NCBI GenBank assembly: GCA_015065105.1
Contig: SVQZ01000005.1
Span: 35,412 to 99,411, forward strand
Source of the DNA: Oscillospiraceae bacterium
GTDB lineage: Bacteria; Bacillota; Clostridia; Oscillospirales; CAG-272
DNA length: 64,000 nucleotides
Direction of reading: 5' to 3'
Made by a program: the position numbers and the translations under genes. The number at the start of each line of letters is the position of its first letter. Positions within the stretch are counted from its first letter, which is position 1. The notes under the pieces are model-generated. The model worked only from the letters and a program-made list of their open reading frames with translations. It was not told the DNA's origin and did not search any database. Of the stretch, positions 14,714 to 41,679 are shown one piece after another.

Positions 14714-15649
14714 GTGTTTTACATTAATTACATACCGAAAAAACGAAGTCTTATTCCCTTTCTTGCCCTCACTCTTTATATAGCCGTCACACTATTCACA
14801 GAGGTCTGTGCCGACGGTGTCAAGGCAGCGTTGGAACTCTGTCTGTTCACTCTGCTTCCCTCCCTTTTTCCCTTCTGCTTTGCAACCAACCTTCTCCTTG
14901 AATGCGATTTTGAAAAGAGCATATCAAGACCCTTTTCAAAGCCTTTCAAAAGACTTTTTCATCTTGATCCCAACCTTGTTTTTCCTTATATCATCGGCAT
15001 GATCTCAGGCTATCCCCAAGGCAGTATCGCAGTTATGAATATATACAAAAAAGGGGGATGTACAAGGGCGGAAGCGGAGCACGCTCTGTCTTTTTGCAAC
15101 AATACCGGCATAGGCTTTATAATTGGTGTATGCCGTACCCTTGGCTTTTCAAAATGGGATACCTTATGCATTTTTTCCGCACAATTTGCCGCATCCCTTC
15201 TGTATGCCCTCATTTTCAGACCTAAAAATTACCCCAAAGAAATAAAAGCAGATAAAAAAAACGAAAAGGATATAGGATTTAATGTTTTTTCAAAGGCTCT
15301 TACGGGATCTCTTTATCCTATGGCTCTTGTCTGCGGTTACGTAATGATATTCGGGGTAATATCCGAATTTGCAGAACGTTTTTTCGCCTTTTTATCATTT
15401 TCTCCCGCTTTTTGCGCTTTTCTTTTCTCCTTTTTAGAAATCAGCAATGCCTCTTACCGTATCTCCCTCCTTCCCTCTGCCCTCGCTCTCCCCCTTTTGT
15501 CGTTCGCAGTTGTTTTCTCGGGACTTTGCGTGCATTTACAGATATACAGCTGTGTAAGGGGCGTCCTCAAAACAAAAAAGCTTATATTAAACAAGCTGTT
15601 TCAAGCAGTATTTGCATTTTTGATAACGTTATTTGTAAAAATGACTTGA
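14714..15649 (+). CDS. Polytopic membrane protein, YlbJ-like (nucleoside-recognition/sporulation integral membrane protein family)
   Basis: 311 aa with many hydrophobic segments. The N-terminus (GVKAALELCLFTLLPSLFPF) resembles YlbJ-type proteins. GTG start with a weak Shine-Dalgarno, so the start is uncertain. Confidence 0.5.
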   Translation: MFYINYIPKKRSLIPFLALTLYIAVTLFTEVCADGVKAALELCLFTLLPSLFPFCFATNLLLECDFEKSISRPFSKPFKRLFHLDPNLVFPYIIGMISGYPQGSIAVMNIYKKGGCTRAEAEHALSFCNNTGIGFIIGVCRTLGFSKWDTLCIFSAQFAASLLYALIFRPKNYPKEIKADKKNEKDIGFNVFSKALTGSLYPMALVCGYVMIFGVISEFAERFFAFLSFSPAFCAFLFSFLEISNASYRISLLPSALALPLLSFAVVFSGLCVHLQIYSCVRGVLKTKKLILNKLFQAVFAFLITLFVKMT

Positions 15650-17526: not shown

Positions 17527-20500
17527 ATGAAAAGAATCACAAAAAGAAGCTTAAGCATGATATTGTCTATACTGATGATATTCCACCTCTTTCCCTACGG
17601 AGCATCGGGAAATAAATCAACGAAAAGCATCTCTTCATATGACCCCGTACCCGAAATTACGGATAATAACGTCATCGAAGTCCAACAAGAAGAACCTCCC
17701 TACGTTTTATACGAAGAAGAAAATTTAAGAGAAGAAAGGGTAAAGCATTACAGAATGAGCAACGGAAGCTTCGCGGCAGTAGAGTTTCCCTATTCTGTAC
17801 ATTATGAAAATGAGGATAAAAGTTATTCAGAGATAGACAATACCCTCATAAAGGGAGAAGACGGGTACAGTAACCGGGAAAACGACGTCAACTACACCTT
17901 CAGTACTGATACAGATACAAACGAAATTCTTGACATAAGCTACGGCAGTTATGAGCTTGAGATAGATTTTACCGGAGTAACGTCGGAATTGCCGCTTTCC
18001 GATAATACATCAGACCTTGAAACAAAAAGCAAAAGCTCGAATAAAAGCATTGAGATAATCAACCCCGAAGACAGAGTAACAGAAGAAAAGAACGGGACCG
18101 TCTCTGCCTTTACCACACGCGAAGGGCCTCTTAATATTGAAAAGCCCTCTGTCGAGGACGTACTAAGCAATCAAATTAAAAACGAGTCCTCGATAAAATA
18201 TATAAATATCACAAAGGGTATAGACTTAAGATATGATATATCAGGCAACGAGTTAAAGGAATACATAATATTAAAGGAGAAGCCCGAAGGTAATATCTTC
18301 AGTTTTAATATGAAGCTCGACGGACTTATACCTGTATTAAATAACGATAAGAGCGTTTCGATATGCGATAAGGATTTCAACAGGATATTTATGATCCCCG
18401 CGCCCTTTATGACCGATGCTTCGGGCGTAGTGTCATATGACTGCGAATACATAATTGAAGAAAGCGGCGAGGGCATAAGCTTTAAGATATCGGCAAACAA
18501 GGAATGGCTTGATTCCGAAGACCGAAGCTATCCCGTTATGATAGACCCTGCATTGAACGTTACGGGCGAGGACAAAACAAATGCAATGACCACGTCCTAT
18601 TATGCAGCCGGTGCCAATACCGTGAATACTGCCATGCAGGAGATATACATGGGGTACGATTCATGGTATGATGGTGAATATATAGGATATTTAAAGGTAA
18701 ATACATTACCCGCGATCCCTTACGGCGCATCCCCTGTAAAGGCATACGTTTATCTCGGCCACTATGCCTATGACGGCGAAAGCATGGAGAGCTTGAACGT
18801 GTCCGCAAGAGCGGTCACGGGAAACACATGGTACACTCAGTATTCTAATACCGTCCTTGACTATACCGTATTATCCGATGATACGGTGGGAGAATTTGTG
18901 AGCTGGGATATCTCGGATGCGGCAAAGGGATGGTATATATTCAACAGTGATCCCGAGGAAGACAACGCTCTTGAAAACAAGGGCATAGTATTCGTTTCGG
19001 AGCATGACCTTAATGACAGTTATAATGCGAAAGCTACCCTGTACGGATTTCATAACCTTAATTTTAACGAAGGCTGTAAGCCCAAATTCGTCGTGTACTA
19101 TCAGAACATGATAGGCATGGAGCAAAGATACAGCAGCAACACTCAGAATATCGGAAGAGCGGGAACGGGAAATATACGAGCATACGACGCAGACCTTACC
19201 TTACTGAGAAATGACGCATCCTTTTCAAGCACGGCAATGTCATTTACCGTAAGCCATATATATAACACAAAATACCATAAAAATCATTTCACCTCAAACG
19301 GCACGGTCCTCAACACCAAAAACTATGACCAGATGTTCGTGGGCAAGGGATGGAAGCTAAATCTGCAGCAGACCGTGGTTGAAAAGCAGATAACCGATAT
19401 AAACGGAAACGCCCAAAGCTATCTTATATATACCGACGAAGACGGAACCGAGCATTATTTCAACAAGGATCCCGACAATAATACTCGATATATAGACGAA
19501 GAAGGTATGGATCTGACCGCCTTCAGCGAAAACGGCGAATGGATAATAAAAAGCGAAAAGGACGTTAGGATGTATTTCTGTAACGGCTACCTGTATAAGA
19601 TAGAGGATGCCAACGGGAACTACGTAGAAATATATTACGGCGATTCCGCGCAGAATACCGCAGGAACCGAGCACAAGCCTGCGGAAAACAGAAACAGAAT
19701 ACTTGAAATAAAGCAGACAGCGGCAGGCGGTACAACAAAAAGTATAGCCCGTTTCAGCTATGCGTCAGACAACTTCCTGTATTCGGTAACCGATATCGCA
19801 GGAAGAAGAACCACCATAGAATATACAGGCATAGGCCAGATAGACTATTTTAAGGACTGTGACGGTGTAAGGAGTAAGTATATCTATGATTCCCAAACGT
19901 CTGCGGGTAAGCTCATTTCCGCCTATGACAGCGGATCGGGTTACGGAATTGACTACGCATATAAAGGACTTTCGGTAGTCGCCTTTAATGAGTTTTGCTC
20001 AAATCATGACAACAACTGCAATCCCGTAAACAAAACAACGGGTGCATCCTATTGGTATAACACATCGGGAGATAAGGTAACGTATTTCAGGTATTCAGGT
20101 GCGGACAGAACGCTAAATACCGCAGACGATATAGTAACCACCTATCTTTTCGATGACTATGCAAGAACGGTAAACTGCTACAGCGCAAATACGAAGATAA
20201 CCGACGGTACGCAAGCGTTTTCGCTTTACGGAACAGGTGCGGCGGCATACACCCCCACAAGCATATCCGCCCCCGAAAAGAACAACAGAATAAGCGCAGA
20301 GACCTCCAGCGGCAGAGTGGCGGTAAATCTGCTCATGAATCCGAGCGCCGAGGGTAACGGCTCATATTGGCAGCTGCAAAACGGCGGAAGCTTGAATTCG
20401 GTCCTTGAAAACGTAAGAAGCGGTGAAAAATCGATAAAGCTCAAGGGCACGGGCGCTTATGCCTGCCAGACAAGACAGATAAAAAGCGCGGGCAAACATA

Positions 20501-23500
20501 CAGCATCGGCATACCTAAGGGTAATGGGAGCGGAAAATGAAATTCCCGAAGTATATCTTTACGTCTCCGATCAACAGGGTAATCTCACACAAAGCAGAAC
20601 GATACGGGAAAGCACCTCAAACGGTCAATGGGAACGCTTAAGCGTTACCTTCGATGCACAGGCGAACAAGAATTACGGAATATATATTAAAACCAACACC
20701 CCTGATGCAACGGTATATGCCGACGACCTCCAGCTTGAAGCGGGAGATGGCGCAAGCCGTCCCGGCTTACTTTCAAACGGCGGCTTTGAGCATTCGGATG
20801 ATAAATGGACGCTTGCTTCAGGCGTTGGTACGGTAAGTACAGATAAATATATGCCCGGTTCGCAATGCAGCTACAAGCTGACGGCAGGTGCAGGTACACA
20901 GTCTCAGATAACTCAGACCACAGCCGTTAATTCAGCAAATTCAGCTGAGACCTTTGTGTTGAGCGGCTGGGCATGGGCGGATTCGATACCCGTAAGAGAA
21001 GGAAACGGAGATGAAAGCAAGCTTGAATCAAAATTCAAGCTCTTCGCCAAGGTGAGCTATACCGATACAAGTATAGGCGACTCCTGGTACAGAGCAGATT
21101 TTAACCCTGATATACGAAACGAATGGCAGTTTTTAAGTCTTATGATAGTACCGAAGCATGATGCCGCGATAAGCAGTATAACAGTAGGAGTATGCTATGC
21201 AAATAATAACGGCAGCGCATATCTTGATAACCTCAGCCTTATCCGCGAGGACGTTCAGACCTACAGCTATGACGAGGAGGGCAACCTTATTCAGGCGGGC
21301 TCATCGGCAAGCGAGGAAAAGGCAAGCTACAGCTATGACGGTGCAGATCTCATCAGCGCCGCCATGCCGGGAAGCGGAACGTGTAACTATACATATAAAC
21401 AAACGGGTAATACGCATTTAGCAGAAACCGTTACCTGTGACGATCTCAAAATGTCATTGGAATACAGTGCGGCGGGAACAAACACGCTATCGACCCTTGA
21501 AAGCACCTCAAATACAAGCGGCAAAAAGATATGCTCAAGCGCAAGCTACAGTGCCGATGGGGACCACGTAAGCTACAGCGAAGATGCAAACGGTATCAGC
21601 GCAAGCTATAGCTATGATAACAAAAATCAGCTTTCAAGCTCTGCCGTTCAAAGCTCGGAGACCTTAAGTAATGGTGACGTCACAACGAATTACACCTATG
21701 ACAGCATAGGCAGAAGCAAGACCACGTATATTTCGGGAAAAATATCCCTTGACTACAGCTACACCGACGGTATGCTCACCGGCATCACAAGGGGCGGATA
21801 TATCCCGGGAAACAGCACAAAACAGAGCCAGAGCTACAGCTTTGTTTACGATGAATGGGGCAATACCGCACAGACCCGTCTCGGTGATGATACGATGCTT
21901 GCAAGCTACGAATATGCACCGAACAACGGAAATCTTATCAAGATGACCTACGGCAACGGTGCGTATATAGAATACGAGTACGATAACCTTGACAGAATCG
22001 TTAAAGTATCGTATAATGGTATCGAAAGATGTAGATATTCCTTTAACGGCGACGGTGCTTTGTATAAGGTAACCGAAGGAACAAAGAGCCATTACTATAA
22101 CTATGACGGCATAGGACGTCTTGTAAGCCTTGTGACCTATGAAAACGGTACGGTTACCGATTATCAGTCCTTTGGTTACGATGAACACGGACGCACCTCC
22201 TCCGTAACCGAAAAATTCGGCTGTAACGAGGTAAAGGACAGCTATACATATAACGAAAGCAACGGTCTTGTGACCTCTGTTACACAGCAGTATCATGCGG
22301 GCTACAAAAACTCAACGAACACCTTCAGCTACAGCTATGACCATTTAAAGCGTGCCGATTCAACCACCGTTGCCCATGACGGCAAGAGCTATAGTGTTAA
22401 CTACAGATACGCAAATAATCTTAAGGATTCTGCATATACTTCGAATTTAATAAACAGAAAGAGCTACGGAACAAGTGTTTATGAAAGCGATGCCTATAAA
22501 TTCGATTACGTATATGACAGGGGCGGAAATATCAAGACCGCAACCGTAACGAGCAAGTATGACAGCAATTACGTATATACCGTAAGATACGGCTATGACG
22601 AGCAGAATCAGCTTGTAAGCGAGCGCTGTGCGGCAACGAACAGAGCCTACGTATATGAATATGATACCTACGGAAATATCCGCAGTAAAAAGACATATAC
22701 CTACGGCAACTATGCAGATCCGGAGGATATAGCGGCAAACTGTACTCTGTTATCCACCGACGTCTATGAATATGACGATTACGAATGGTTCGATCTTTTA
22801 ACCGAGTACAATAACGTACCCTTCAGCCATGATATCATAGGTAATCCGTTAACGTATTACAATGGAAAGAACTATACCTTCACCTGGCAGAACGGACGTC
22901 AGATGGCAACTGTTTCGGTAAATGGTACTAATTTGTCCTTTGAGTATGATATAGACGGACTTCGTACCAAGAAGACTGTACAAAACGGTGAAACCTATAA
23001 TTACTATTATTCGGGCAATAAGCTTCATGCCATGACCTGGGAGAACGGCACAAAGATGCTGAGTTTTCTTTATGACTCAAGCGGAGCACCCTACAGCATG
23101 GTATATTGCTATACCGAAAGCGGAGTAAAGTATTCATCCTCCTACTATTACGTAACAAACCTACAGGGTGACGTTATAGCCCTCATGAACGCAAATCACG
23201 AAATAGTTGCCGAATACCTTTACGACGCCTGGGGTAATATCCTTTCGGTAACAAATGCAAACGGAACAGACCTATCCGGCAATGCAACCCATATCGCAAA
23301 CCTTAACCCCTTACGCTACAGAGGTTACGTTTACGATAACGAGACAGGGTTCTACTATCTTCAGAGTAGGTATTATGATCCTGTGATTGGGCGATTTATT
23401 AACCTTGACGGATTCATTTCTACCGATACCGGATTCCTTGGTCATAATATGTTTGCGTACTGTAACAATAATTCGGTGATGTTTAGTGATCATAGTGGGT

Positions 23501-23979
23501 GTCTTTCTATTGCTCTAAATTCTGAAGATATAAAAACTCTAATCGAGGGTTTAGTAGCTGGTATAAGTGCTGCTGTTGCTGATGGACCGTCTTTTGTTGC
23601 TGATATTGTCGGAGCAGGTATATTTTTTGTTGCTGGAGTTAAAGTTGTATCAAATGTTAAATCTCGTGCTGAAGAGGAAACAGAAGAAAGAGAAAAAATT
23701 TCGGATTCTGTTTCCAATAACAAATCAAACGAACCGATAATATTTCCTGTTGACCCAAATCTATTTTGTCCAAGAGGTTTGATAAAAGTACCTAGAGAAG
23801 GTAGTAAAAACGGAAAATTAATTAGTTGGATGAGTCCGGTAACGAATGTTGAAGTTTTTCGGTGGGATGAAAATACTAATTTCTCAAATGGTCCTCATTA
23901 TCATATCTACGGCAGCGGCCATTATGCACCTGGAACTAATGTGCCAGAACCATATGCAACATTATATTTTTCTGAATAA
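17527..23979 (+). CDS. Rhs/YD-repeat polymorphic toxin precursor (WapA-like): Sec signal peptide, tandem CBM-like modules, YD-repeat shell, Rhs core, variable C-terminal tip 1
   Basis: ORF is 17407..23979. Preferred start is the ATG at 17527, with AGGAG 5 nt upstream, giving the signal peptide MKRITKRSLSMILSILMIFHLFPYGASG. Many YD-type repeats are present (YSYDEEGNLI, YTYDSIGR, YEYDNLDRIV, YNYDGIGRLV, YGYDEQNQLV, YEYDTYGNI). The core ends NPLRYRGYVYDNETGFYYLQSRYYDPVIGRFINLD...NNSVMFSDHSG and is followed by an unrelated 159-aa tail. Confidence 0.9.
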   Translation: MKRITKRSLSMILSILMIFHLFPYGASGNKSTKSISSYDPVPEITDNNVIEVQQEEPPYVLYEEENLREERVKHYRMSNGSFAAVEFPYSVHYENEDKSYSEIDNTLIKGEDGYSNRENDVNYTFSTDTDTNEILDISYGSYELEIDFTGVTSELPLSDNTSDLETKSKSSNKSIEIINPEDRVTEEKNGTVSAFTTREGPLNIEKPSVEDVLSNQIKNESSIKYINITKGIDLRYDISGNELKEYIILKEKPEGNIFSFNMKLDGLIPVLNNDKSVSICDKDFNRIFMIPAPFMTDASGVVSYDCEYIIEESGEGISFKISANKEWLDSEDRSYPVMIDPALNVTGEDKTNAMTTSYYAAGANTVNTAMQEIYMGYDSWYDGEYIGYLKVNTLPAIPYGASPVKAYVYLGHYAYDGESMESLNVSARAVTGNTWYTQYSNTVLDYTVLSDDTVGEFVSWDISDAAKGWYIFNSDPEEDNALENKGIVFVSEHDLNDSYNAKATLYGFHNLNFNEGCKPKFVVYYQNMIGMEQRYSSNTQNIGRAGTGNIRAYDADLTLLRNDASFSSTAMSFTVSHIYNTKYHKNHFTSNGTVLNTKNYDQMFVGKGWKLNLQQTVVEKQITDINGNAQSYLIYTDEDGTEHYFNKDPDNNTRYIDEEGMDLTAFSENGEWIIKSEKDVRMYFCNGYLYKIEDANGNYVEIYYGDSAQNTAGTEHKPAENRNRILEIKQTAAGGTTKSIARFSYASDNFLYSVTDIAGRRTTIEYTGIGQIDYFKDCDGVRSKYIYDSQTSAGKLISAYDSGSGYGIDYAYKGLSVVAFNEFCSNHDNNCNPVNKTTGASYWYNTSGDKVTYFRYSGADRTLNTADDIVTTYLFDDYARTVNCYSANTKITDGTQAFSLYGTGAAAYTPTSISAPEKNNRISAETSSGRVAVNLLMNPSAEGNGSYWQLQNGGSLNSVLENVRSGEKSIKLKGTGAYACQTRQIKSAGKHTASAYLRVMGAENEIPEVYLYVSDQQGNLTQSRTIRESTSNGQWERLSVTFDAQANKNYGIYIKTNTPDATVYADDLQLEAGDGASRPGLLSNGGFEHSDDKWTLASGVGTVSTDKYMPGSQCSYKLTAGAGTQSQITQTTAVNSANSAETFVLSGWAWADSIPVREGNGDESKLESKFKLFAKVSYTDTSIGDSWYRADFNPDIRNEWQFLSLMIVPKHDAAISSITVGVCYANNNGSAYLDNLSLIREDVQTYSYDEEGNLIQAGSSASEEKASYSYDGADLISAAMPGSGTCNYTYKQTGNTHLAETVTCDDLKMSLEYSAAGTNTLSTLESTSNTSGKKICSSASYSADGDHVSYSEDANGISASYSYDNKNQLSSSAVQSSETLSNGDVTTNYTYDSIGRSKTTYISGKISLDYSYTDGMLTGITRGGYIPGNSTKQSQSYSFVYDEWGNTAQTRLGDDTMLASYEYAPNNGNLIKMTYGNGAYIEYEYDNLDRIVKVSYNGIERCRYSFNGDGALYKVTEGTKSHYYNYDGIGRLVSLVTYENGTVTDYQSFGYDEHGRTSSVTEKFGCNEVKDSYTYNESNGLVTSVTQQYHAGYKNSTNTFSYSYDHLKRADSTTVAHDGKSYSVNYRYANNLKDSAYTSNLINRKSYGTSVYESDAYKFDYVYDRGGNIKTATVTSKYDSNYVYTVRYGYDEQNQLVSERCAATNRAYVYEYDTYGNIRSKKTYTYGNYADPEDIAANCTLLSTDVYEYDDYEWFDLLTEYNNVPFSHDIIGNPLTYYNGKNYTFTWQNGRQMATVSVNGTNLSFEYDIDGLRTKKTVQNGETYNYYYSGNKLHAMTWENGTKMLSFLYDSSGAPYSMVYCYTESGVKYSSSYYYVTNLQGDVIALMNANHEIVAEYLYDAWGNILSVTNANGTDLSGNATHIANLNPLRYRGYVYDNETGFYYLQSRYYDPVIGRFINLDGFISTDTGFLGHNMFAYCNNNSVMFSDHSGCLSIALNSEDIKTLIEGLVAGISAAVADGPSFVADIVGAGIFFVAGVKVVSNVKSRAEEETEEREKISDSVSNNKSNEPIIFPVDPNLFCPRGLIKVPREGSKNGKLISWMSPVTNVEVFRWDENTNFSNGPHYHIYGSGHYAPGTNVPEPYATLYFSE
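23035..23403 (+). repeat. Rhs-core homology block, copy 1 (inside the full-length gene)
   Basis: 369 nt, in-frame direct repeat of 24497..24865. My hand count found 41 mismatches (about 89% identity), with identical runs of about 45-55 nt. Confidence 0.9.
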
Positions 23980-23998
23980 TACAAGGAACTTTTAAATT

Positions 23999-24403
23999 AT
24001 GATCAAATATAATATATCAAAAATCGAGAAACTAAAAGAGTTTATATACTACAGCAATATACATGATGCTATAGTAAAATACAGTAAATATGATTTAAAA
24101 AACAATTGTTTCACAATTAAAGTCGCTAATTATTCGTTTAATATACAATATACTTTGAAATTTTATAATATTGAATATTTATTATTTACCAACACAGCTT
24201 CAAATAACTCTAATAATATTAACACTTTAGTTGTAAGCAAATCTAACGATAATAATGAAGTTCTAAATGAACTATCTCTGAAATTTTCACAAAATAATTT
24301 TTATTTTATATTTGAAATGTTCTTTGATAAAGAAATTCATATTATATGCGAATCGATTGGTATAATAACATCGCAACCCAGACTAACTGTAGAAAGTCAA
24401 TAG
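23999..24403 (+). CDS. Candidate cognate immunity protein for tip 1 (cytosolic; no signal peptide or transmembrane segment)
   Basis: 134 aa. Starts 20 nt after the rhs stop, on the same strand. Very AT-rich and rich in Asn, Ile, Lys and Tyr. Position is typical of Rhs immunity genes. No family recognised. Confidence 0.55.
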   Translation: MIKYNISKIEKLKEFIYYSNIHDAIVKYSKYDLKNNCFTIKVANYSFNIQYTLKFYNIEYLLFTNTASNNSNNINTLVVSKSNDNNEVLNELSLKFSQNNFYFIFEMFFDKEIHIICESIGIITSQPRLTVESQ

Positions 24404-24448
24404 AAAAAGTTTAAAAGTTTAAAGAAATGCGTTATCCTTGACAGATTC

Positions 24449-25519
24449 TTGAATTTGTCAAGGGTAGTGCAAATCTTAGTGGTTGGAAAGACCTTGACTT
24501 GGGAAAACGGCGCAAAAATGCTGAGCTTTCTTTATGACTCAAGCGGTAATCCCTACAGCATGGTATATTGCTATACCGAAAACTCAGTAAAGTATTCATC
24601 CTCCTACTATTACGTAACAAACCTGCAGGGCGACGTTGTTGCTCTCATGAATGCAAATCACGAAATAGTTGCCGAATACCTTTACGACGCCTGGGGTAAT
24701 ATTCTTTCGGTAACAAATGCAAGCGGAACAGACCTATCCGGTAATGCAAACCATATCGCAAACCTTAACCCCTTACGCTACAGAGGTTACGTTTACGATA
24801 ACGAGACGGGATTCTATTATGTATCCAGCCGTTATTACGATCCTGAGATCGGTAGATTTATAAATGCAGATAATACAATTTCCGGTATCAACGGACCGAT
24901 GTTGGGATATAACCAGTTTGCCTACAGTTTCAATAATCCTGTAAATATGGATGATGAATCCGGTAATTGGCCCAAATGGGTGAAAAATACTGTTAAATGG
25001 GTGGCTAAGAATGTTGTTAAACCAGTTGTAAAAACTGTCAAAAAGACTCTTTCCAAGGTTGATGCTACATATTCGCGAGGTATCAATGTTAGTGGGACAC
25101 CAAGTGCTTTTATTTTCAATCTTCAGGCAGGTATATCCATAGACACAAAAGGGAATGTTGCAATACAGGGGTCTGCCGGAGGAGGCATTACGGGTGGAGT
25201 ACCCAGTGCATCTATCACGGCATATCAAAGTGTAACCAATGCGCCAAGTATAGCCAAACTTGAGGACTCCGGTTATCAAATTGGTGGTTCTATAGGAGTC
25301 CCTGTATATGAGGTTCCACTGGCTGTAGGGGGTGACTTCAACATAATTCCAGATAGCGCCCTAAACACAACATATTATGGTGCAACAAGTAATGTGGGGA
25401 TTGGAACGCCTGGTGGAGAGTTTCATGTTGAATGGGGTGAAACTGCCACATGGAATGCCACTCGGTTTAACATATTTGATGTGGCTGAAGACGTTTACAT
25501 TAAGATTATGGAGTGGTAA
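24449..25519 (+). CDS. Orphan Rhs C-terminal module 1: about 123 codons of Rhs core plus alternative toxin tip 2
   Basis: The frame opens at a TTG with no Shine-Dalgarno. Residues TWENGAKMLSFLYDSSGNPYSMVYCYTE...NPLRYRGYVYDNETGFYYVSSRYYDPEIGRFINAD...NNPVNMDDESG parallel the end of the main gene. A different 185-aa tail follows. Confidence 0.75.
   Translation: MNLSRVVQILVVGKTLTWENGAKMLSFLYDSSGNPYSMVYCYTENSVKYSSSYYYVTNLQGDVVALMNANHEIVAEYLYDAWGNILSVTNASGTDLSGNANHIANLNPLRYRGYVYDNETGFYYVSSRYYDPEIGRFINADNTISGINGPMLGYNQFAYSFNNPVNMDDESGNWPKWVKNTVKWVAKNVVKPVVKTVKKTLSKVDATYSRGINVSGTPSAFIFNLQAGISIDTKGNVAIQGSAGGGITGGVPSASITAYQSVTNAPSIAKLEDSGYQIGGSIGVPVYEVPLAVGGDFNIIPDSALNTTYYGATSNVGIGTPGGEFHVEWGETATWNATRFNIFDVAEDVYIKIMEW
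24497..24865 (+). repeat. Rhs-core homology block, copy 2 (orphan 1)
   Basis: Direct repeat of 23035..23403 at an offset of 1,462 nt. Confidence 0.9.
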
Positions 25520-25521
25520 AG

Positions 25522-26235
25522 ATGAAGTTGATTCGACATATTTTCACAATCATATTAACACTACTTTTGCTAGTTTTTGGAGGGGTAGAGGTGTTGGCTA
25601 TGAATACAGGTTTTTCTACTGAATCGTTGCCAGAAGATGATATGAATACATTGCTCAAAAATGTAAATATATCTATGTTGACAGACGAGCCACCAAAGAA
25701 AACAATTGAGTGTTTTGCTGTTAATGAAGATGGAGTGATCGCTATTGGCTGTAATAGTTCTGAAAACAAAGTAGTATGTATTTATACAAGTGACGGCGTT
25801 TTTCAATATGGTTACAGTTTTAAATGTAGTGGTAATTTCGGCATTGAATTTGATAAAAGTGTATTAAATATTTATCTTGTTCGTAGTGATATTGCAATTG
25901 CTGTTAATTCTGTTGGAGAAGTAGAGAGTATCCTTAAAATTCAAAACACATCCGAAAACAACTCTTATTGGAATGATTGCGTTTTTTCAACCAGACGAAA
26001 AATTGGAGATACCGAATATTTCCTTAAAAATGATATGGGTATTTTAAATGTATTTGCATCATCATATTCTCAATTAATCATCACAAATAAATACGGTGAA
26101 GAAAGTATTATATATGATGTAAATTCGGCTCAATTTTCAAATATGGTAGTAGTTGTTGGTGGGGTTATTGTATTTATTTGTCTTGTTGTAGCAGTTGTTA
26201 TTTGGCAGTTCATTAAGCTAAAGCGCAATGCTTGA
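25522..26235 (+). CDS. Candidate immunity protein for tip 2; extracytoplasmic and membrane-tethered
   Basis: ATG at 25522 with GGAG 8 nt upstream (a GTG at 25513 is also possible). It overlaps the end of orphan 1. N-terminal signal peptide MKLIRHIFTIILTLLLLVFGGVEVLA. C-terminal transmembrane anchor VVVVGGVIVFICLVVAVVIWQF followed by KLKRNA. Confidence 0.55.
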   Translation: MKLIRHIFTIILTLLLLVFGGVEVLAMNTGFSTESLPEDDMNTLLKNVNISMLTDEPPKKTIECFAVNEDGVIAIGCNSSENKVVCIYTSDGVFQYGYSFKCSGNFGIEFDKSVLNIYLVRSDIAIAVNSVGEVESILKIQNTSENNSYWNDCVFSTRRKIGDTEYFLKNDMGILNVFASSYSQLIITNKYGEESIIYDVNSAQFSNMVVVVGGVIVFICLVVAVVIWQFIKLKRNA

Positions 26236-26290
26236 ACATTTTTAGCACCATCCCAGCAAGCATCGCCTTTTGGGGACAAAAGGCAGTTTG

Positions 26291-26446
26291 TTGGGAGAAT
26301 CCCAAGCCCTTAAAGGTTTCAGGAATATTCCTGACAAGTCTGCGTTTGGGTGACCAAACGCGATGTTTACGGTACATAACAGTTTTCTTTTTTCGGCAAG
26401 TAACCGACCGAAAAATAATGACCCGGAGGGATTATCCCCTCCGGGT
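26291..26446. other. Cluster of five short perfect hairpins in the spacer between cassettes 2 and 3
   Basis: ttggga-gaa-tcccaa (26291-26305). tcaggaat/attcctga (26319-26334). gcgtttgg-GTGA-ccaaacgc (26342-26361, GNRA-type loop). tttttcgg...ccgaaaaa (about 26389-26415). acccggaggg-attatc-ccctccgggt (26421-26446). No convincing ORF. Confidence 0.35.
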
Positions 26447-26509
26447 AAATAGCAGAACCCAGCCGAAGTAATATTCTATTATCTGCAGAGCAGATATTAT
26501 GATCCTGCG

Positions 26510-27211
26510 GTGGGTAGGTTTGTCAGTGCGGATTCTATTTTTATTACAAGTTCGTTTTTAGGTTATAATTTATTTTCATACTGTGAAAACACACCTGTTA
26601 CTTCTATAGATTCAAACGGTTATTGTAAAAAAATCCTTTTTATAAAATTCGATTGTCATAAGGTTACCTGTAAAACAAGCAAAAACTATAAGTCAACAAG
26701 AAAAAAAGCAGCTGTACTATATGATGGTAGATCGAGTGGTTCGTTTTTTGGTTTAATAGATGGTCAAGGATTTGAAAAACAAGGAGAGTCATTAGTTGAG
26801 GAATTACAATCATCTTACGAGGTTGATGCTATTTCATTTGATACTTTAGGGGGGGTTGTAGATGGTTGGAATTCTCTAAATGACACATATGACCGTGTAT
26901 ATATATTAGCACATGGAGATCCGGGTAATTTGTGGTGTGAAGGTGAAAATCTCGGTGTTGATCAAAATTCTTCCTATTCAATTTGGGATTTAAGTGCAAT
27001 AGATACTAAAAATATATATTTGTATTCTTGTAATGGAGCTACTCTAAATCAAGACGGGATCAGTTTAGCGAATGCTTTCTCGGATATTACAGGTGCTTGT
27101 GTTACCGCTGTTTCTAATGGTTCGGTTAATTACAATATTTTAACAAATAAACCATATGCAGACGGCGGGGTATGGGTATCTCGAACACGTAAGAACTATA
27201 TTTTTAAATAG
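26510..27211 (+). CDS. Orphan Rhs C-terminal module 2: minimal core remnant plus toxin tip 3 with a caspase/CHAT-like His-Cys dyad
   Basis: The ORF track starts at GTG 26510, with no Shine-Dalgarno. The in-frame upstream sequence from 26474 reads FYYLQSRYYDPAVGRFVSAD, which is the end of the Rhs core. It continues ...CENTPVTSIDSNG and then a 195-aa tail containing VYILAHGDPG (His codon 26912-26914) and IYLYSCNGAT (Cys codon 27029-27031). Confidence 0.65.
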   Translation: MGRFVSADSIFITSSFLGYNLFSYCENTPVTSIDSNGYCKKILFIKFDCHKVTCKTSKNYKSTRKKAAVLYDGRSSGSFFGLIDGQGFEKQGESLVEELQSSYEVDAISFDTLGGVVDGWNSLNDTYDRVYILAHGDPGNLWCEGENLGVDQNSSYSIWDLSAIDTKNIYLYSCNGATLNQDGISLANAFSDITGACVTAVSNGSVNYNILTNKPYADGGVWVSRTRKNYIFK

Positions 27212-27223
27212 GTGGTATATTTT

Positions 27224-27826
27224 ATGAATATATTGAAGTCAATATTAGTACTAATTGCGTTAAGTATGCTTGTTGTTATTTCTTTTAAAACAACAAAACA
27301 TCTAATACATAATATCAGATCAAATCGCCGTTACATAAAATCTATTATCTGTACAGTCATTGTGAGCATATTAACCGTATATGCTATCTTATCCTACGGT
27401 ATATATATTTACCCCTTTGAAAAAAATGTCGAATTGGTTCTTGTGAAAGAATATACACTCCCAAAGCAGGATAATTATGAAATATTATACGGAAAAAAAT
27501 GGTGCGGTGTTTATAAAGCTGATGGTTCCAAACCGGCTTCGTTTATATTTAAGCCTGAAAAATATGATTATGACTTTGAAAATTTAGAGTTTGATTTAGA
27601 CAATTATACATATATTGTCACATATGCTCAAAAAGCTGAAAGCTTGTCATATAATGTTTGGGATACAATCAAAAAACCGGTAAATACCGGGGCAAAAGAA
27701 GGACATATTGTTTTCAAAGAAGAGTATAACGAAAGAAAGGTATATATTTATAAAATAAAAGATAATATACGAATCGATTGTAACATGAATGATCTAAGTA
27801 ATTTACAATTATATAATGCAAAATAA
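27224..27826 (+). CDS. Candidate immunity protein for tip 3; two N-terminal transmembrane segments plus a soluble domain
   Basis: ATG at 27224 with AGGTGG 9 nt upstream (the ORF track GTG at 27212 is less likely). Transmembrane segments ILKSILVLIALSMLVVISF and IICTVIVSILTVYAILSYGIYIY. AT-rich. Directly follows orphan 2. Confidence 0.5.
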   Translation: MNILKSILVLIALSMLVVISFKTTKHLIHNIRSNRRYIKSIICTVIVSILTVYAILSYGIYIYPFEKNVELVLVKEYTLPKQDNYEILYGKKWCGVYKADGSKPASFIFKPEKYDYDFENLEFDLDNYTYIVTYAQKAESLSYNVWDTIKKPVNTGAKEGHIVFKEEYNERKVYIYKIKDNIRIDCNMNDLSNLQLYNAK

Positions 27827-28024
27827 CTAATTAGACAGAGGGCGCTGTCCTTCTTATGAAACAAACGTAAAACAAGAAATTGCTATCTGTCTTAAAATCA
27901 AACAGCAAACGGGCGAGAACGTTGAAGAAGACTATGTTCTGAAATTCGTTAAATCCTACGATTCTACAGAGCATGATGAAGCGAAGACTACATAGGACAC
28001 TTATGCTTGTTAATGAAAACGACA

Positions 28025-28050
28025 GCAAGGCGGTCTCCCGCCTTGCTTTT
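28025..28050 (+). terminator. Intrinsic terminator closing the plus-strand cassette array
   Basis: gcaaggcgg-tctc-ccgccttgc followed by TTTTT. Confidence 0.65.
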
Positions 28051-28059
28051 TCGTATAAC

Positions 28060-28105
28060 AAAAAACGGTGCAAGTCGGATCTTTCGACTTGCACCGTCCC
28101 TTTTT
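28060..28105. terminator. Bidirectional terminator (mainly for the minus-strand SLH gene)
   Basis: 13-bp stem acggtgcaagtcg / cgacttgcaccgt, flanked by AAAAAA on the left and CCCTTTTT on the right. Confidence 0.7.
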
Positions 28106-28107
28106 AT

Positions 28108-30738
28108 TTAAAGATCACCGAAGGTTATGCAGATCTTTGCAGCTTGCGCCCTCGAAGCTGTCATATTAGGCGAAAGGGTGGTTTGGGAGGTTCCGTTTAT
28201 AAGTCCCGTACCTACCGCCCAGCAAAGAGCTTCCCTTGCCCAATCTGCTATATCCGTATTATCGGAATAGACCGAAAGGTCAGCCTTTTTTGTCATATCC
28301 ATTCCGTTTTTCAAGGCATAGTTATAAAAGAATCTCGCAAGCTGTCCACGGCTTATCTTAACACCGAGTCCGAATCTGCCGTTGCCGACTCCGTTACAAT
28401 ATCCCTCTGCACTTGCCCAGGCAACTGCGGCTGAATACCATTCTCCGCTTTTAACGTCGCTAAAGCCTGTATCCATGCCCTCATATCCGCTGAGATCAGC
28501 TCCGTCGATCCTTGCCAGAACCAAAACGAACTGCTCGCGGGTAAGAGCTTTAGCGGGAAGGAACATACCCTTGTCATTACCTGTAAAATATCCCTTCAAC
28601 GATGCCTTTACCGCTGTATCGGTGTACCATTTACCCGTTTCAACGTCGGGGAACGGCGTCTTTGCCTTAAGGTAGAGAGAAACGTCCTCGTAAATATTTA
28701 CAACGTCCCCTTCATATACCGGTTCTCCGTCATCAAAGCACCAGCCCTCAACGATATATCCCTCGGTATTCACCTTGGGGAAATCCATATACTTTCTTCC
28801 TCCGACCACTCTTTTTGAAGAGACATAATTTCCGTTCTGATCGTAAAAATCAACATTATAGCTCTTGTAATGGCCTCTTGCCGCAAGGGCGTCGGCCTCG
28901 GAGGAATCTCTTGCAAAGCGTATAGAATGAATTGATATAACGTCACCCTCCTCAACCTTTGTTCCGTTTACCGACATAAAGGAGAAACGAAGGGTATTGA
29001 GCTTGCCGGAAAAAGCGGAAAGATCGATGATATAGGTATGGTAATTGCCGTCGTTTACTGCGTTTATAAAGCCTGCAAAGGCATTCTGATCTATACCTGT
29101 CTGTTTTCCCGTGGTGGCATATACCGCCTGAAACATATAGGGATTTTTATCCTTGTGCTCAAGCTTCATGTCAATTATTGCATAATTATATTCGTCAAGA
29201 TCAAGGTATGCATAACCGCGGGAAACACTTGAATCGGGATTATCAACTCTTGTGTTAGGCAAGCCGAAGCTCAGAGTTGCCGAGGGATCGCTGTAAAGAT
29301 CCGTTACCGTCAGGTCAATGCCCTCTGCATTTCCCGAGACAGAAAGCTGGCTTGTGTTTGGGATAAGACAGTGTGTATCGCTTGCCGCAAAGTGAACCGC
29401 ACCGAATTCGATATATTCAGAGGGTATCTCGGGTATATTTTTTGCGGTATCATGGGGCTTTCCCCTGGAAAGTATGACAGAGTTTACTACAGTTCTCTCA
29501 ACGTTTCCGCTGTCGCAGGGACGGTTGACCACCTTGTATTCGCCCTCATCCGCCAGCACCATGGTGGCAGAGCCGCCGCCGTCAAGAATAAAGGCGGTAT
29601 TGAGATCGAGCTCATCCGCAATATCCCAATACTTGTTGAAATCAAGACCTTTGCTGAAATCACTCTGTCTTCCGTCATTCACAAGGAAAACTACGTTACC
29701 GTTATTCTTGATTCCGACTATTGTTGTAGGATAGCCCGTTGTGGTACCGCTTTCGTTTTTAACACCGTCAATAACGAAGGGGGTATGTCCGCCCACAACG
29801 TTGGTCATATTCTGCCAAAGCTCAGTGTCGCGTCCGAAGAGCTCTCTTACCTCAAAGGAAAGCTTAATCTTATCGCCAACCTCGTAGCCGTTGAGCTTTT
29901 CCATAGCAGTGCCCCTTGCACAAAGAATGATATGGTCCTCTGCCATTTGAGGGTCGGAATCGGAAGATTCGTCATATATACCTATTATCTCGCCCTCGAT
30001 ATTTGCACCGTGCTTTACGGTATAGCCGTCTGTTTTTACCAAAAGCTCAAGGGCATCGTCGAGAGCATAGCTGTTAAGGCATCCCTTATCCGTATAAACC
30101 ACAAGGGCGTTATTTGCAGGCAAGCGGTTAAGTCCGTCAGCCTTTACGTTATCAAGGGTGATATCAAGCTTGGGACAGCCTATGGCAACACGGTTATCTG
30201 CCGTAGAGCCGAATGCCCAGAACTGACCCTCGTAGGGGGTCTCCTGTATCATGTAATCCGACGTAATTATCTCGCCGTCATACATATTGAAGCCGCGGGG
30301 TAAGGTAAGCTCCTTTTTTACCACCGCATCGTTATAGCCGTTGTAATCCGTCCCGCTTCCCTCGATCCTTGCGTGGGCATAGGCAACCATCCAGAGGTCT
30401 CCGTTAATGGCGGCAATGGGGGTTTTATCGGGATTGTTTTTCGCAAACTCCGCCATGGTGTCGCTGGTTTTTGAAAGCTTATTTGCGTATTTTCCGCCGC
30501 CTGTTACATCTATATAAAGATCATTTGCCGAAGGGTCGAACTCCACTGCGTTAAAATTCTGTATATTGTAACGGGAGGTGGAATCGGTTGCTATATGGGT
30601 ATGGGTAACACCCTTATAAAGCTCGGCTTGGGAATAAGCCGTTTGGCTTTCCTCTTCGCCGATATTAAGCGCATTTGCCGACAGGGGCAAAAGCATTATT
30701 AATACTAAAATAATTGATAAAGCCTTTTTCATTTTCAT
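28108..30738 (-). CDS. Cell-wall-anchored phosphodiester glycosidase-family protein (NAGPA-like domain) with three C-terminal SLH repeats
   Basis: 876 aa with a signal peptide. Contains ...AAINGDLW... and ...NTAFILDGGGSATMV.... The C-terminus has three SLH-type units (FPDVETGKWYTDTAV..., FSDVKSGEWYSAAVAWA..., DIADWAREALCWAV...). Confidence 0.75.
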   Translation of the reverse strand: MKMKKALSIILVLIMLLPLSANALNIGEEESQTAYSQAELYKGVTHTHIATDSTSRYNIQNFNAVEFDPSANDLYIDVTGGGKYANKLSKTSDTMAEFAKNNPDKTPIAAINGDLWMVAYAHARIEGSGTDYNGYNDAVVKKELTLPRGFNMYDGEIITSDYMIQETPYEGQFWAFGSTADNRVAIGCPKLDITLDNVKADGLNRLPANNALVVYTDKGCLNSYALDDALELLVKTDGYTVKHGANIEGEIIGIYDESSDSDPQMAEDHIILCARGTAMEKLNGYEVGDKIKLSFEVRELFGRDTELWQNMTNVVGGHTPFVIDGVKNESGTTTGYPTTIVGIKNNGNVVFLVNDGRQSDFSKGLDFNKYWDIADELDLNTAFILDGGGSATMVLADEGEYKVVNRPCDSGNVERTVVNSVILSRGKPHDTAKNIPEIPSEYIEFGAVHFAASDTHCLIPNTSQLSVSGNAEGIDLTVTDLYSDPSATLSFGLPNTRVDNPDSSVSRGYAYLDLDEYNYAIIDMKLEHKDKNPYMFQAVYATTGKQTGIDQNAFAGFINAVNDGNYHTYIIDLSAFSGKLNTLRFSFMSVNGTKVEEGDVISIHSIRFARDSSEADALAARGHYKSYNVDFYDQNGNYVSSKRVVGGRKYMDFPKVNTEGYIVEGWCFDDGEPVYEGDVVNIYEDVSLYLKAKTPFPDVETGKWYTDTAVKASLKGYFTGNDKGMFLPAKALTREQFVLVLARIDGADLSGYEGMDTGFSDVKSGEWYSAAVAWASAEGYCNGVGNGRFGLGVKISRGQLARFFYNYALKNGMDMTKKADLSVYSDNTDIADWAREALCWAVGTGLINGTSQTTLSPNMTASRAQAAKICITFGDL

Positions 30739-39906: not shown

Positions 39907-41679
39907 TTAACTTCCTTCTGATATCAGCATATTGATCATATCCAGATTTGTAAGCTTGAGGTAAACCCCGTAGCCGCTGATATGCTCATATTCAACGTAA
40001 CCATTTTCATATACTGTCAGATCAACACATGAGCCGTCCTTCATTTCGATAGAGACACGGGAATGCCCAACGTATGAAATATCCGAGCTGTCAAGACAGA
40101 ATTCTGCCTTTAAAAGCATTTTTATGATCATATCTCTTTTACGGTTCAATACCTTTGATTCTTTTAATTCACCGTTTTCACTGTCGTAGCTTCCGAATGA
40201 TACTGCGTTTTCTTCAAGAGCAAGCTTATCCCTGCCGAAGATATCACTTCCCGTCTTAAGAACTATTCCCCTGCAGGCCTCGTATATCCTCATGCTGTCC
40301 TTATCCTCATAATAATTATTACACATTATACGGTAGGACTCGTCATAATCATTGAGAAGATAAACGTCTCCCTCATAGCTTGAAACGTAGTCAGAATAGC
40401 AAAAACGTTCCCAGAACACCTGCCATCTTTTCAGCTCTGCCCACGTATGGCCTACGGGTATTGTATCACGGATATTCTCCATTATCTTATCCTCGCCGAG
40501 ACTTAGTGTCTCAACGTGCCAATACACCCTTCCTCCATATACGATAAGATCCTTTTCAAGATAGAAGCTGTCATCGCCGTCGGGCATATACCCCTCGGGG
40601 ATATATATTCCGTCCTTTATCTCTACAGCCTTTCCTGCTTTTGTATATTCGGTATTTCTTCCGATACGCAAAAGTGAGTCTATCTGTGCCGCCATAGGAA
40701 CGTACGGTATATTCTTAAGCTTTTCTATCTCCTTATACAGAATCTCTCTTTCATCAAAGAGCAGATCTATATTGTAGGTATAATAATAATCGTTTGTTAC
40801 GTAAGGACTGTAGCTTCTTTCATGGGGCTTATAGGCAGCCTCCACCTCAGCCTTTGTTATTGAAGAATTTTCAACGATATCAAGCACCGAAAATTCGCTG
40901 TAATTTATTCTTGTATTATTATAGGTTATAAGATTATAATAATCCTTTGATCTCTGATCGTTCTTTTGTTCAAGAATATTAAGAAGAATGCACTTGAAGC
41001 CTTTGTCCTCCGAACGCTTGTCGAATTCATATTCCTCCTCGGAGGTAAGAGAAAGCTTTGTTCTCGCAAATTCCTCATATCCTTCGGCATCCCTTGCCAG
41101 AAGAAGGTCGAGATCCCAGAAAACGCTGTTGGGGTTATAATATCCGGGATAGTCCTTATATATAAGCTCCGCGGGAATATCAAAATGTATAATAAAATCA
41201 ACTATATTAAATCCGGGTGTACAGTTATTCTCATCGCATACAAACCAACCGTCGGCATCCTTGAACTGTGCCGCCCAGAGCTCGAATTTTTCATTACCGA
41301 CGTAGTCAAGCATATAACCGGGAATCGCATGGTATTCACAGTTATGGATCTTACATATACCCGTACTTCCCCCTCCTACGGCAGGGCGGTAGCTCTCCTT
41401 TCTTTCCGAAAGCTTCATCACACCGATATCATCCTCGGGCAACACACTCTCCTCAGAAAATGTATCAAAGGGGATTTCAGCATTCTTCTCCTTTTTTTCC
41501 TTTTTAAATAAGGGAAGACAGAGAAGCAATGCACAAAGAAGGGTAATGCAAGCCGCCGCAAGCATTATTCTTTTATAGCTTTTTCTTTTACGCTTTTCAG
41601 AAAGCACCCCTGCACGTATCCTTTCCTTATCGGGAAGTGTACTTTCCATGGCTTTTTTCAATATTTCTCTTTCCTTCAT
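39907..41679 (-). CDS. Single-pass membrane protein, putative anti-sigma factor with a large uncharacterised extracytoplasmic domain
   Basis: 590 aa. Short cytoplasmic N-terminus, one transmembrane segment (IMLAAACITLLCALLLCLPLF), then about 520 aa rich in Tyr, Asp and Glu. The start overlaps the stop of the sigma gene by 4 nt. Confidence 0.5.
   Translation of the reverse strand: MKEREILKKAMESTLPDKERIRAGVLSEKRKRKSYKRIMLAAACITLLCALLLCLPLFKKEKKEKNAEIPFDTFSEESVLPEDDIGVMKLSERKESYRPAVGGGSTGICKIHNCEYHAIPGYMLDYVGNEKFELWAAQFKDADGWFVCDENNCTPGFNIVDFIIHFDIPAELIYKDYPGYYNPNSVFWDLDLLLARDAEGYEEFARTKLSLTSEEEYEFDKRSEDKGFKCILLNILEQKNDQRSKDYYNLITYNNTRINYSEFSVLDIVENSSITKAEVEAAYKPHERSYSPYVTNDYYYTYNIDLLFDEREILYKEIEKLKNIPYVPMAAQIDSLLRIGRNTEYTKAGKAVEIKDGIYIPEGYMPDGDDSFYLEKDLIVYGGRVYWHVETLSLGEDKIMENIRDTIPVGHTWAELKRWQVFWERFCYSDYVSSYEGDVYLLNDYDESYRIMCNNYYEDKDSMRIYEACRGIVLKTGSDIFGRDKLALEENAVSFGSYDSENGELKESKVLNRKRDMIIKMLLKAEFCLDSSDISYVGHSRVSIEMKDGSCVDLTVYENGYVEYEHISGYGVYLKLTNLDMINMLISEGS

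Follow-up and report, generated by a model that had tools for sequence, protein, structure and literature searches.

Does a giant Rhs gene that is followed by two fragments of its own core, each fused to a different tail and trailed by its own small open reading frame (ORF), represent a toxin system with spare tips in reserve, and by what route could such tips be exchanged? The question is raised by a locus at positions 17,527 to 27,826 of a 64,000-nucleotide stretch of contig SVQZ01000005.1 from an Oscillospiraceae bacterium (assembly GCA_015065105.1); this whole stretch is referred to below as the window, and positions are those of the window unless another locus is named. The sequence is very probably a chromosomal polymorphic-toxin locus of the Rhs/YD-repeat type that serves in competition between bacteria, in which the C-terminal tail (CT) of the main gene, CT1, would be the expressed tip, two orphan tips (CT2 and CT3) would be silent, and three small ORFs (Imm1, Imm2 and Imm3) would be the immunity candidates (Table 1). 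The host is an uncultured spore-forming member of the Clostridia with S-layer-homology (SLH) proteins, probably from an animal or human gut.

Gene order and strain variation

We assign the locus to the polymorphic toxins because conspecific strains either swap the tip at the junction of core and tail or add orphan modules. The conspecific locus L123 (JGI 3300024303) matches the window at 99.2% identity for 17.3 kb, as far as position 23482, and is unrelated beyond it; the breakpoint is no more than a few codons away from the end of the core, and the replacement consists of an unrelated tail of 185 aa, for which Pfam gave no match, and then an 89-aa ORF that resembles a zinc ribbon. A second conspecific locus, L003, is 99.8% identical up to 27825. 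From there (4564-6505 of L003) it continues with a fourth orphan (323 aa), a 201-aa ankyrin-repeat ORF, which is an immunity candidate whose N-terminal segment is hydrophobic, and the beginning of a fifth core fragment. The core of this fourth orphan is an internally deleted copy that joins aa ~1480s to aa ~1880s of the body. Outside such changes there is little divergence: L122 is 99.9% identical to the window with the same gene arrangement through Imm3, and wherever L122 or the shorter contigs L124-L126 and L001/2/7/8 overlap the locus, the identity is 99.9-100%. The flanking genes on these conspecific contigs are identical to those of the window. Only the tips vary between conspecific strains, as in a polymorphic toxin.

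All three pairs of tail and following ORF recur, still linked, on unrelated contigs. After the CT1 homologues of L027 and L028 there are 127-aa ORFs that are 25-28% identical to Imm1 and share motifs with it (BLASTP E 6e-15), after the CT2 homologues of L030 and L032 there are ORFs that are 35-46% identical to Imm2, with the same signal peptide and C-terminal transmembrane (TM) anchor, and after the CT3 homologues of L035 and L036 there are ORFs that are 32-33% identical to Imm3. These three independent linkages in unrelated contigs are strong evidence, at the level of sequence, that the pairs are candidate cognate toxin-immunity pairs.

The main gene is a 6.45-kb ORF on the + strand with two possible starts, GTG 17407 and the more plausible ATG 17527, 6 nt 5' of which is AAAGGAG. 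Its product is matched in three stretches by RHS_repeat (PF05593; E 4.3e-15, 56 bits against a gathering threshold (GA) of 22) and near its end by the Rhs-associated core profile TIGR03696 (Rhs_assc_core; 65.1 bits against a cut-off of 32.5), and the tail that begins at aa 1992, after ...DHSG, is exactly 159 residues long. The solved Rhs shells 8h8a, Tse15, Tse5 and 7q97 match aa 1355-1980 of the protein in a phmmer search against the PDB, the part matched by the first three being aa 1432-1977. By tblastn, loci of Clostridiales, Eubacteriales and Romboutsia cover the protein from residues 41-52 to ~1990-2140, and the best relatives on genome contigs, at 27-71% identity, come from metagenome-assembled genomes (MAGs) of Clostridiales, Acutalibacteraceae, Oscillospiraceae and Ruminococcus; the exact full-length protein had no record in the protein collection searched. 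The N-terminal region of ~1,200 aa gave only sub-threshold matches, to DUF7948 (24.6 bits against a GA of 27), CBM_4_9 and DUF6531. The CBM_4_9-like module (21.8 bits against a GA of 25.9) lies at 20344-20856 (aa ~940-1110), and a second N-terminal segment resembles such a module by eye only; these segments may be the glycan- or receptor-binding part of a delivery region.

The N-terminus of the protein, MKRITKRSLSMILSILMIFHLFPYGASG, has a basic n-region, a hydrophobic window at aa 8-27 and a c-region of small residues, a pattern that by eye predicts a Sec signal peptide. No PAAR, VgrG, LXG or WXG100 domain was found in the protein, and no genes of type VI or type VII secretion systems (T6SS, T7SS) were found among the window ORFs scanned. 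Domain scans likewise detected no wall-binding repeats and no SLH, LysM or sortase-signal domains in the Rhs protein, and no sortase or SecDF gene was present among the same ORFs.

Orphan 1 opens with a core piece of ~126 codons that TIGR03696 scores at 65 bits, as strongly as in the main gene. Its first 300 nt (24492-24791) are 92% identical to 23030-23329, with a weaker match on to 24871, and the two copies are in the same codon phase, so that recombination between them would give an in-frame fusion. The sole 5' start of this ORF is a TTG with no Shine-Dalgarno sequence (SD), and neither orphan has an ATG at its 5' end. In orphan 2 an in-frame stop lies just 5' of the point at which core homology begins (FYYLQSRYYDP, nt 26474), the first start is GTG 26510 (a 233-aa ORF), again with no SD, and at the DNA level the core homology amounts to only ~60 nt and is weak. 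The hairpin between Imm1 and orphan 1 has a minimum free energy of -27.1 kcal/mol (z = -5.6), and none of 200 shuffled sequences was as stable; it could be a transcript-end element, a stability element or a recombination boundary.

Much of this organization had been proposed in a first-pass annotation made from the sequence and its ORF translations. The 2,150-codon YD-repeat gene with a signal peptide, the lack of PAAR, VgrG, LXG and WXG features, the 159-aa tail after DHSG and the two orphan modules with shrinking core pieces, different tails and small ORFs are all upheld by the domain matches, DNA repeats and start sites described above, and the architecture of a toxin reservoir is corroborated by the pairs linked in independent loci and by strains that differ at their tips, which was also the outcome of the comparison across related strains that the annotation had recommended. 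The three small ORFs that it listed are present, but two of their starts had to be corrected: Imm2 and Imm3 most likely begin at the SD-preceded ATGs at 25522 and 27224 (237 and 200 aa), which are the starts in L001-L007 as well. Its term "Sec-dependent" is kept as a prediction drawn solely from the signal peptide and from the lack of other secretion markers.

Table 1. Features of the Rhs locus, with positions in the window.
Feature	Positions	Strand	Description
Main rhs gene	17527..23979	+	ORF, 2,150 aa; signal peptide, N-terminal region, YD/Rhs shell, core, CT1
Predicted Sec (signal peptidase I-type) signal peptide	17527..17607	+	MKRITKRSLSMILSILMIFHLFPYGAS; judged by inspection; no lipobox
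Rhs-associated core	23221..23499	+	aa 1899-1991; TIGR03696; end ...YYDPVIGRFINLD...NNNSVMFSDHSG; junction where tips exchange
CT1, tip on main gene	23500..23976	+	159 aa; pre-toxin segment and toxin domain
Imm1 candidate	23999..24403	+	134 aa; no signal peptide, TM segment or hydrophobic window
Hairpin between Imm1 and orphan 1	24428..24471	+	20 bp, very stable, no U-tract
Orphan module 1	24449..25519	+	356-aa ORF; core fragment 24492-24871, CT2 24962-25516
Imm2 candidate	25522..26235	+	237 aa; SD GGAGTGG before ATG; predicted N-terminal signal peptide, C-terminal TM anchor
Quasi-palindromic non-coding element	26253..26373	+	120 nt; terminal inverted repeat CCAGCAAGCATCGC; four internal hairpins; 3' terminal inverted repeat degraded
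Orphan module 2	26474..27211	+	core end FYYLQSRYYDPAVGRF...SIDSNG (last ~50 codons), CT3 26621-27208
Imm3 candidate	27224..27826	+	200 aa; SD AGGTGG before ATG; two N-terminal TM helices, basic loop between
Two terminator hairpins closing the locus	28024..28097		common to convergent SLH gene; z = -9.5

Similar orphan arrays occur in other Clostridia (L024, L027, L028). That of L028 (ENA ERZ28617875) is much longer and stands behind a full-length Rhs gene of the signal-peptide type, with an AHH nuclease tip and a DUF5071 partner, and that of L024, from a Clostridium sp. MAG, has at least six short ORF pairs resembling orphan modules, also behind a full-length gene of this type.

The genes of the window include rpoBC, fusA, tuf, uvrAB, mutS2, recO, era, ybeY, phoH, yqfD and genes of rhamnose catabolism. 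The sporulation genes YqfD/YabP, together with PhoH, and three SLH-domain proteins (28108-30738, 30735-32855 and 45739-48102), which indicate an S-layer-bearing envelope, agree with the spore-former context beside S-layer-anchored enzymes that had been suggested for the locus. Two further ORFs, at 14714-15649 (+, 311 aa) and 39907-41679 (-, 590 aa), had no Pfam match at the thresholds used.

Three tips and their candidate partners

Searches of all the tails and small ORFs against Pfam, NCBIfam and PADLOC gave a single match, to DUF4347 (PF14252) on CT3; Imm1, CT2 and the other partners gave none. The first-pass annotation had judged that none of the tips could be assigned to a family by eye and that all payloads and immunity candidates were uncharacterized. 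This stands for CT1, CT2 and the three partners but not for CT3, which belongs to a described, if poorly understood, family, so that one of the three tips is assigned while the partners have no match. The structural modeling that it had suggested produced a weakly Vap-like barrel for CT2 and no match for CT1 at the level of significance given below.

CT1 consists of a hydrophobic, Gly/Ala-rich pre-toxin segment (nt 23584-23658, precursor aa 2020-2044) and a β-rich toxin domain of ~85 aa (nt ~23722-23976). The domain carries the motif R-W-D-E-N...N-G-x-H-Y-H...H...P-E-P, in which R121, W122, D123, E124, N125, N130, G131, H133, Y134, H135, H141, P149, E150 and P151 are invariant and x is proline (P132) in at least 90% of sequences. 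None of the 27 clusters of homologues has a Pfam domain on the tail. The AlphaFold2 model reaches a predicted local distance difference test score (pLDDT) of 88-97 over residues 81-159, and its Foldseek matches to β-tent proteins (MsrB, CRBN) are scattered and appear only at E > 1. The CT1 sequence found nothing in the PDB below E 0.01, and the profile of its family matched PDB entries in Rhs-core columns only. An HNH- or LAS-type metal site was considered for the H-x-H...H residues and set aside, since spacing and order differ and the model has no helix after the histidine pair, and a likeness of the hydrophobic segment to the fusion peptide of paramyxovirus F0 was discarded as being at chance level (E about 1). 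CT1 is an uncharacterized tail family with no family or fold match. Because it combines a hydrophobic pre-toxin segment with a His/Asp/Glu-rich domain and a cytosolic partner, we infer that it is a membrane-crossing enzyme that enters by way of its hydrophobic segment and acts in the cytosol; Imm1 is predicted to be cytosolic because it lacks a signal peptide or TM segment.

CT2, for which 107 clusters of homologues were found, had no sequence match in the PDB, and its family profile, like that of CT1, matched Rhs-core columns only. The AlphaFold2 model, built on a 69-sequence alignment, has a pLDDT of 96.5 and a predicted template-modeling score of 0.85, and runs from an N-terminal helix through four long strands, a short helix and four further long strands to a C-terminal helix (strands 36-46, 50-61, 65-79 and 82-92, helix 97-100, strands 102-115, 118-131, 136-148 and 151-170). 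Its top Foldseek matches are VapB, VapG and VapD of R. equi (E 1.2e-3 to 7.7e-3, probability 0.96-0.99, template-modeling score 0.31-0.54), with GFP-like and OmpW/OprG barrels ranking after them. The barrel contains 14.5% glycine and has a nearly invariant tryptophan at its end, and the N-terminal 32 residues have a charge of +9 and a hydrophobic moment (muH 0.62) above that of 99% of shuffles. CT2 is best described as a tail with no described family and a weakly Vap-like predicted barrel. The cationic amphipathic helix, this barrel and the membrane-anchored ectoprotein partner are the reasons for reading CT2 as a membrane-acting toxin, and it may act on the target membrane from outside, a tentative view to which we give somewhat less than even odds. 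Imm2, with hydrophobic windows at its N-terminus and at about aa 200-235 (residues 1-35 and 204-238 of the 240-aa translation from GTG 25513), is a predicted type-I membrane ectoprotein.

The homologues of CT1 and CT2 were all short: none of the 134 clusters exceeds 322 aa, and no full-length Rhs protein with either tail was returned, that of the window included. An artefact is the probable explanation, as contigs are fragmented and genes cut short. A reading of these tails as always orphan was rejected, given that the window's own full-length protein is missing too and that long genes are rarely complete on short contigs. The same shortness of the returned homologues means that no expressed CT2 was seen.

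CT3 matches DUF4347 at 27.3 bits over the whole ORF and at 28.0 bits over the tail only, against a GA of 24.6. An exhaustive search gave 80 representatives, and 19 of the 32 alignment members scanned are on RHS_repeat proteins. In the 29-sequence alignment the only invariant columns are H98 and C137, each of which follows a hydrophobic strand (IYILxHGxPG and LYLFSCNGAT), and these are the catalytic candidates (His at nt 26912-26914, Cys at nt 27029-27031). The CT3 sequence itself found nothing in the PDB below E 0.01; the family profile found a weak match (E 0.17), with both motifs aligned, to chain 9qpe_G, a "DUF4347 domain-containing protein". This chain is Tce1 (PA0256), a T6SS cargo of P. 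aeruginosa that is loaded on Hcp3 and whose structure was determined in 2026 by cryogenic electron microscopy (PMC13323088). Tce1 is a putative cysteine protease with a His/Cys dyad like that of the TcdB cysteine protease domain; in its relative Tce2, the predicted active site is needed for an inhibitory effect on yeast growth (PMC13323088). By sequence, CT3 is a Tce1-like member of DUF4347 and a putative clan-CD-like His/Cys cysteine protease. Imm3 has hydrophobic windows at the N-terminus and at about aa 37-64 (residues 1-29 and 41-68 of the 204-aa translation from GTG 27212), and its C-terminal domain of ~130 aa is probably extracytoplasmic.

The palindromic spacer element

The least expected feature of the locus is an oriT-like palindrome (oriT, origin of transfer) in the 240-nt spacer between Imm2 and orphan 2. 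It is bounded by 14-bp terminal inverted repeats (TIRs; CCAGCAAGCATCGC...GCGATGCTTGCTGG), is often flanked by TA, and is present in one copy only in the 64-kb window. Copies in the Rhs arrays of other organisms are 85-97% identical to it in nucleotide sequence, whereas the neighboring proteins are only 25-46% identical. They were located at 2978-3097 of L014, at 7798-7921, 8990-9107 and ~12521-12640 of L028, where each of the three lies just 3' of an immunity ORF, and once in L027; L032-34 have one in the opposite orientation (9684-9804 of L032, minus strand). The element was noted in L037-L121 as well.

An exact-pattern scan of metagenome contigs returned 85 loci that fall into three groups. 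The full element was present in 35 loci; an Rhs-core motif accompanies it within the short locus in 23 of these, and a nikA-like gene in none. Half-elements, comprising the first 33-52 nt (one TIR and the first hairpin), were found in 28 loci directly upstream of a NikA-like gene and never with the Rhs motif, and the remaining 22 loci have a variant or truncated element, with the Rhs motif in 12 of them. These first 33-52 nt are 90-100% identical to sequence upstream of nikA-relaxase operons; in the half-element loci L066 and L087 a MobA/VirD2 relaxase follows the NikA-like gene, and L066 also has DUF3801 and VirD4/TraG. The half-elements thus occupy the position expected of a putative oriT of an integrative and conjugative element (ICE). 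No mobilization genes were found near the window copy or the other copies in Rhs arrays.

The 55 distinct copies include compensatory variants in three of the hairpins. In a 32-sequence alignment the fraction of pair cells that are paired is 83.5%, as against 33-51% in slid controls, and the covariation score exceeds that of all 500 shuffles, which is consistent with either RNA structure or DNA palindromy. RNAalifold on a MAFFT alignment recovered two of five helices, with the last hairpin misaligned, and Rfam gave no match in either gathering or E-value mode. A reading as tRNA or tmRNA was rejected, as was a reading as an integron attC site, since the sequence itself is conserved and not the structure alone; to our knowledge integrons are essentially unknown in Firmicutes. 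The same spacer has on the minus strand (26421-26446) a terminator-like hairpin with a T-run, probably a relic brought in with the cassette because there is no minus-strand gene there to terminate.

On these sequence comparisons the element is either a MITE-like derivative (MITE, miniature inverted-repeat transposable element) of the oriT region of a conjugative element or a sequence shared with such a region, and it is strongly tied to Rhs arrays. A bolder and unlikely proposal is that the element that punctuates the orphan arrays of gut Clostridia serves as an orphan oriT, nicked in trans by resident ICE relaxases, or as a portable homology arm on the 3' side, complementing the 5' arm provided by the core, in either case giving the cassettes a route of exchange between species, and that CT1 and CT2 found two antibacterial toxin families, one of them a Vap-like membrane-active barrel. 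The element may also be a transcript stabilizer or junk. If it is functional, its role would explain why non-coding DNA is so much better conserved between arrays than the proteins around it, and would address the long-standing question of how CT/immunity cassettes move between Rhs loci.

Mechanism, alternatives and known systems

In the mechanism that we propose, the 2,150-aa precursor would be exported by Sec via its N-terminal signal peptide, the YD shell would enclose the C-terminal tail and, from knowledge of the family, the Rhs core would free that tail by autoproteolysis. More speculatively, the N-terminal region with its sub-threshold CBM-like module might display the shell at the surface or bind the target. 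CT1 would then pass through the membrane of the target cell and work as an enzyme in its cytoplasm; CT2, if it came to be expressed, could act on the membrane from outside, and CT3 would be a putative protease whose membrane-anchored partner, Imm3, probably faces outward. Orphan 1 could replace CT1-Imm1 by homologous recombination through the 300 nt at 92% identity, and an analogous recombinational activation of orphans has been shown in Salmonella (PMC3967940). Orphan 2 would be a poor substrate for recombination because of its short and weak homology. The immunity genes could protect against sibling strains regardless of toxin expression because they have their own SDs.

Several observations weigh against this interpretation. 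The cleavage motif at the core end, PxxxxDPxG(L), is degenerate, reading SVMFSDHSG in the main gene and PVNMDDESG in orphan 1; relatives have PVNRxDPTG at this place and also DSSG and similar variants. The CT1 model found nothing in the PDB or BFVD at E <= 0.001 with Foldseek, and the likeness of CT2 to Vap is borderline, with nothing at E <= 0.001, a root-mean-square deviation of ~6 Å and no Pfam Vap match at E <= 10. Tce1, the characterized relative of CT3, is not toxic to E. coli or yeast (PMC13323088). In L123 a 2-nt deletion (CCC to C, at window ~20989-20990) splits the body into 1161 and 1001 aa, which may reflect partial decay of the system in the population or an assembly error. Orphan Rhs genes of Salmonella offer a precedent for translation from internal starts (PMC7043789), and the toxicity, immunity, export and autocleavage that we propose here are all inferred.

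The Salmonella precedent bears on the possibility that internal starts or promoters drive expression of the orphans alone, which with their downstream ORFs would then form toxin-antitoxin-like or self-regulatory modules. Internal Met starts are called in many orphan homologues (e.g. MFAYCGNNPV...) and consensus promoter-like hexamers occur inside the locus, but the latter are at chance frequency (35 against 33.7 in shuffles), no SD is present at the 5' end of either orphan whereas one precedes every immunity ORF, and the membrane-anchored, outward-facing partners of CT2 and CT3 are more in keeping with export of the toxin than with a cytoplasmic toxin-antitoxin pair. We regard independent expression as quite unlikely, and the pattern of starts and SDs fits silent orphans with independently translated immunity genes.

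Decay of the whole locus into a relic with no current function is more doubtful still. It would accommodate the degenerate DPxG motif of the main gene, the frameshifted body of L123, the degraded 3' TIR of the spacer element and the little core that orphan 2 retains; against it, the 6.45-kb ORF is intact in both the window and L122, the partial copies of it in L124-L126 are 99.99-100% identical, the three immunity ORFs are intact and have SDs, and the catalytic residues are kept in every tail. A TcC/teneurin-like toxin aimed at eukaryotic host cells is hardly credible: insecticidal ABC toxins have Rhs shells too, the PDB matches of the core in a profile search include TcdB2-TccC3 and YenC2, and Tce2, a DUF4347 relative, is toxic to yeast and not to E. 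coli, yet the window has no TcA/TcB partners, and a dedicated, co-inherited small ORF for each tip and the swapping of tips between conspecific strains are hallmarks of interbacterial systems.

We return to the polymorphic-toxin reading for the comparison with known systems, beginning with the spacer element. Its likeness to the oriT of NikA/MobA-relaxase elements lies in the position of the half-elements upstream of nikA-relaxase operons, and it differs in being a closed 120-nt palindrome in Rhs arrays with no mobilization genes nearby. With Correia-like MITEs it shares the 14-bp TIRs, a size of ~120 nt, the frequent TA flanks and occurrence in both orientations, but MITEs are dispersed, whereas here the 64-kb window has a single copy and the copies are clustered in Rhs arrays.

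CT3 has in common with Tce1 a score above the DUF4347 threshold and the His...Cys motifs (HGxPG and CNG) aligned to 9qpe_G, and the sequence relation, at a profile E of 0.17, is distant. It is joined to an Rhs core instead of being loaded on Hcp, and is accompanied by a membrane-anchored immunity candidate, a gene for which tce1 and tce2 have no counterpart; CT3 would give the recently described Tce/DUF4347 putative protease an antibacterial context and a partner for immunity. The Vap fold is a barrel of eight strands in which a helix separates β4 from β5; its surface is Gly-rich ("bald") and its C-terminal Trp is conserved (PMC4118825). VapA binds and permeabilizes liposomes (PMC10100859). 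The predicted CT2 shares the eight-stranded antiparallel barrel, the β4-helix-β5 order, the Gly-rich surface and the C-terminal Trp; it differs in having no sequence match to Vap, a template-modeling score of 0.3-0.5, extra N- and C-terminal helices, and a place on an Rhs protein with an immunity candidate. CT2 would tie the Vap fold to an antibacterial toxin with an immunity protein and could help to explain the role of the Vap barrel.

WapA of B. subtilis and S. suis are Sec-exported, wall-associated Rhs toxins (PMC12704120), and the locus had been called WapA-like in the first-pass annotation. Both are giant Firmicute Rhs proteins that have a Sec-type signal peptide, carry a pre-toxin segment in a polymorphic CT and are followed by an immunity gene, and the name holds as a functional analogy only; it does not extend to anchoring, as no wall-binding repeats or anchoring domain, sortase or SecF-like partner were detected here and the likeness is limited to generic Rhs parts.

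The closest parallel is with the orphan rhs-CT/rhsI arrays known in E. coli, Dickeya and Salmonella (PMC3150448, PMC3967940), with which the locus shares the YD shell, the core, a variable CT, an immunity gene, core-bearing orphan pairs and strain variation confined to the tip. It departs from them in its Gram-positive host, in a signal peptide instead of PAAR/VgrG/T6SS coupling, in a different, uncharacterized N-terminal region of 1,200 aa and in two tails with no described family. Competition between strains in gut communities is shaped by polymorphic toxins, both secreted and contact-dependent, and mechanistic work so far has dealt almost entirely with Proteobacteria, Bacteroidales and a few Bacilli; the locus adds a strain-resolved example from an uncultured spore-forming Clostridium, in which strains that co-exist have the same body but different tips and immunity genes are kept, and three tail families whose predicted sites of action (cytosol, membrane and envelope) are testable. 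The kind of locus has long been known, and what is new is that CT1, CT2 and all three partners are uncharacterized families.

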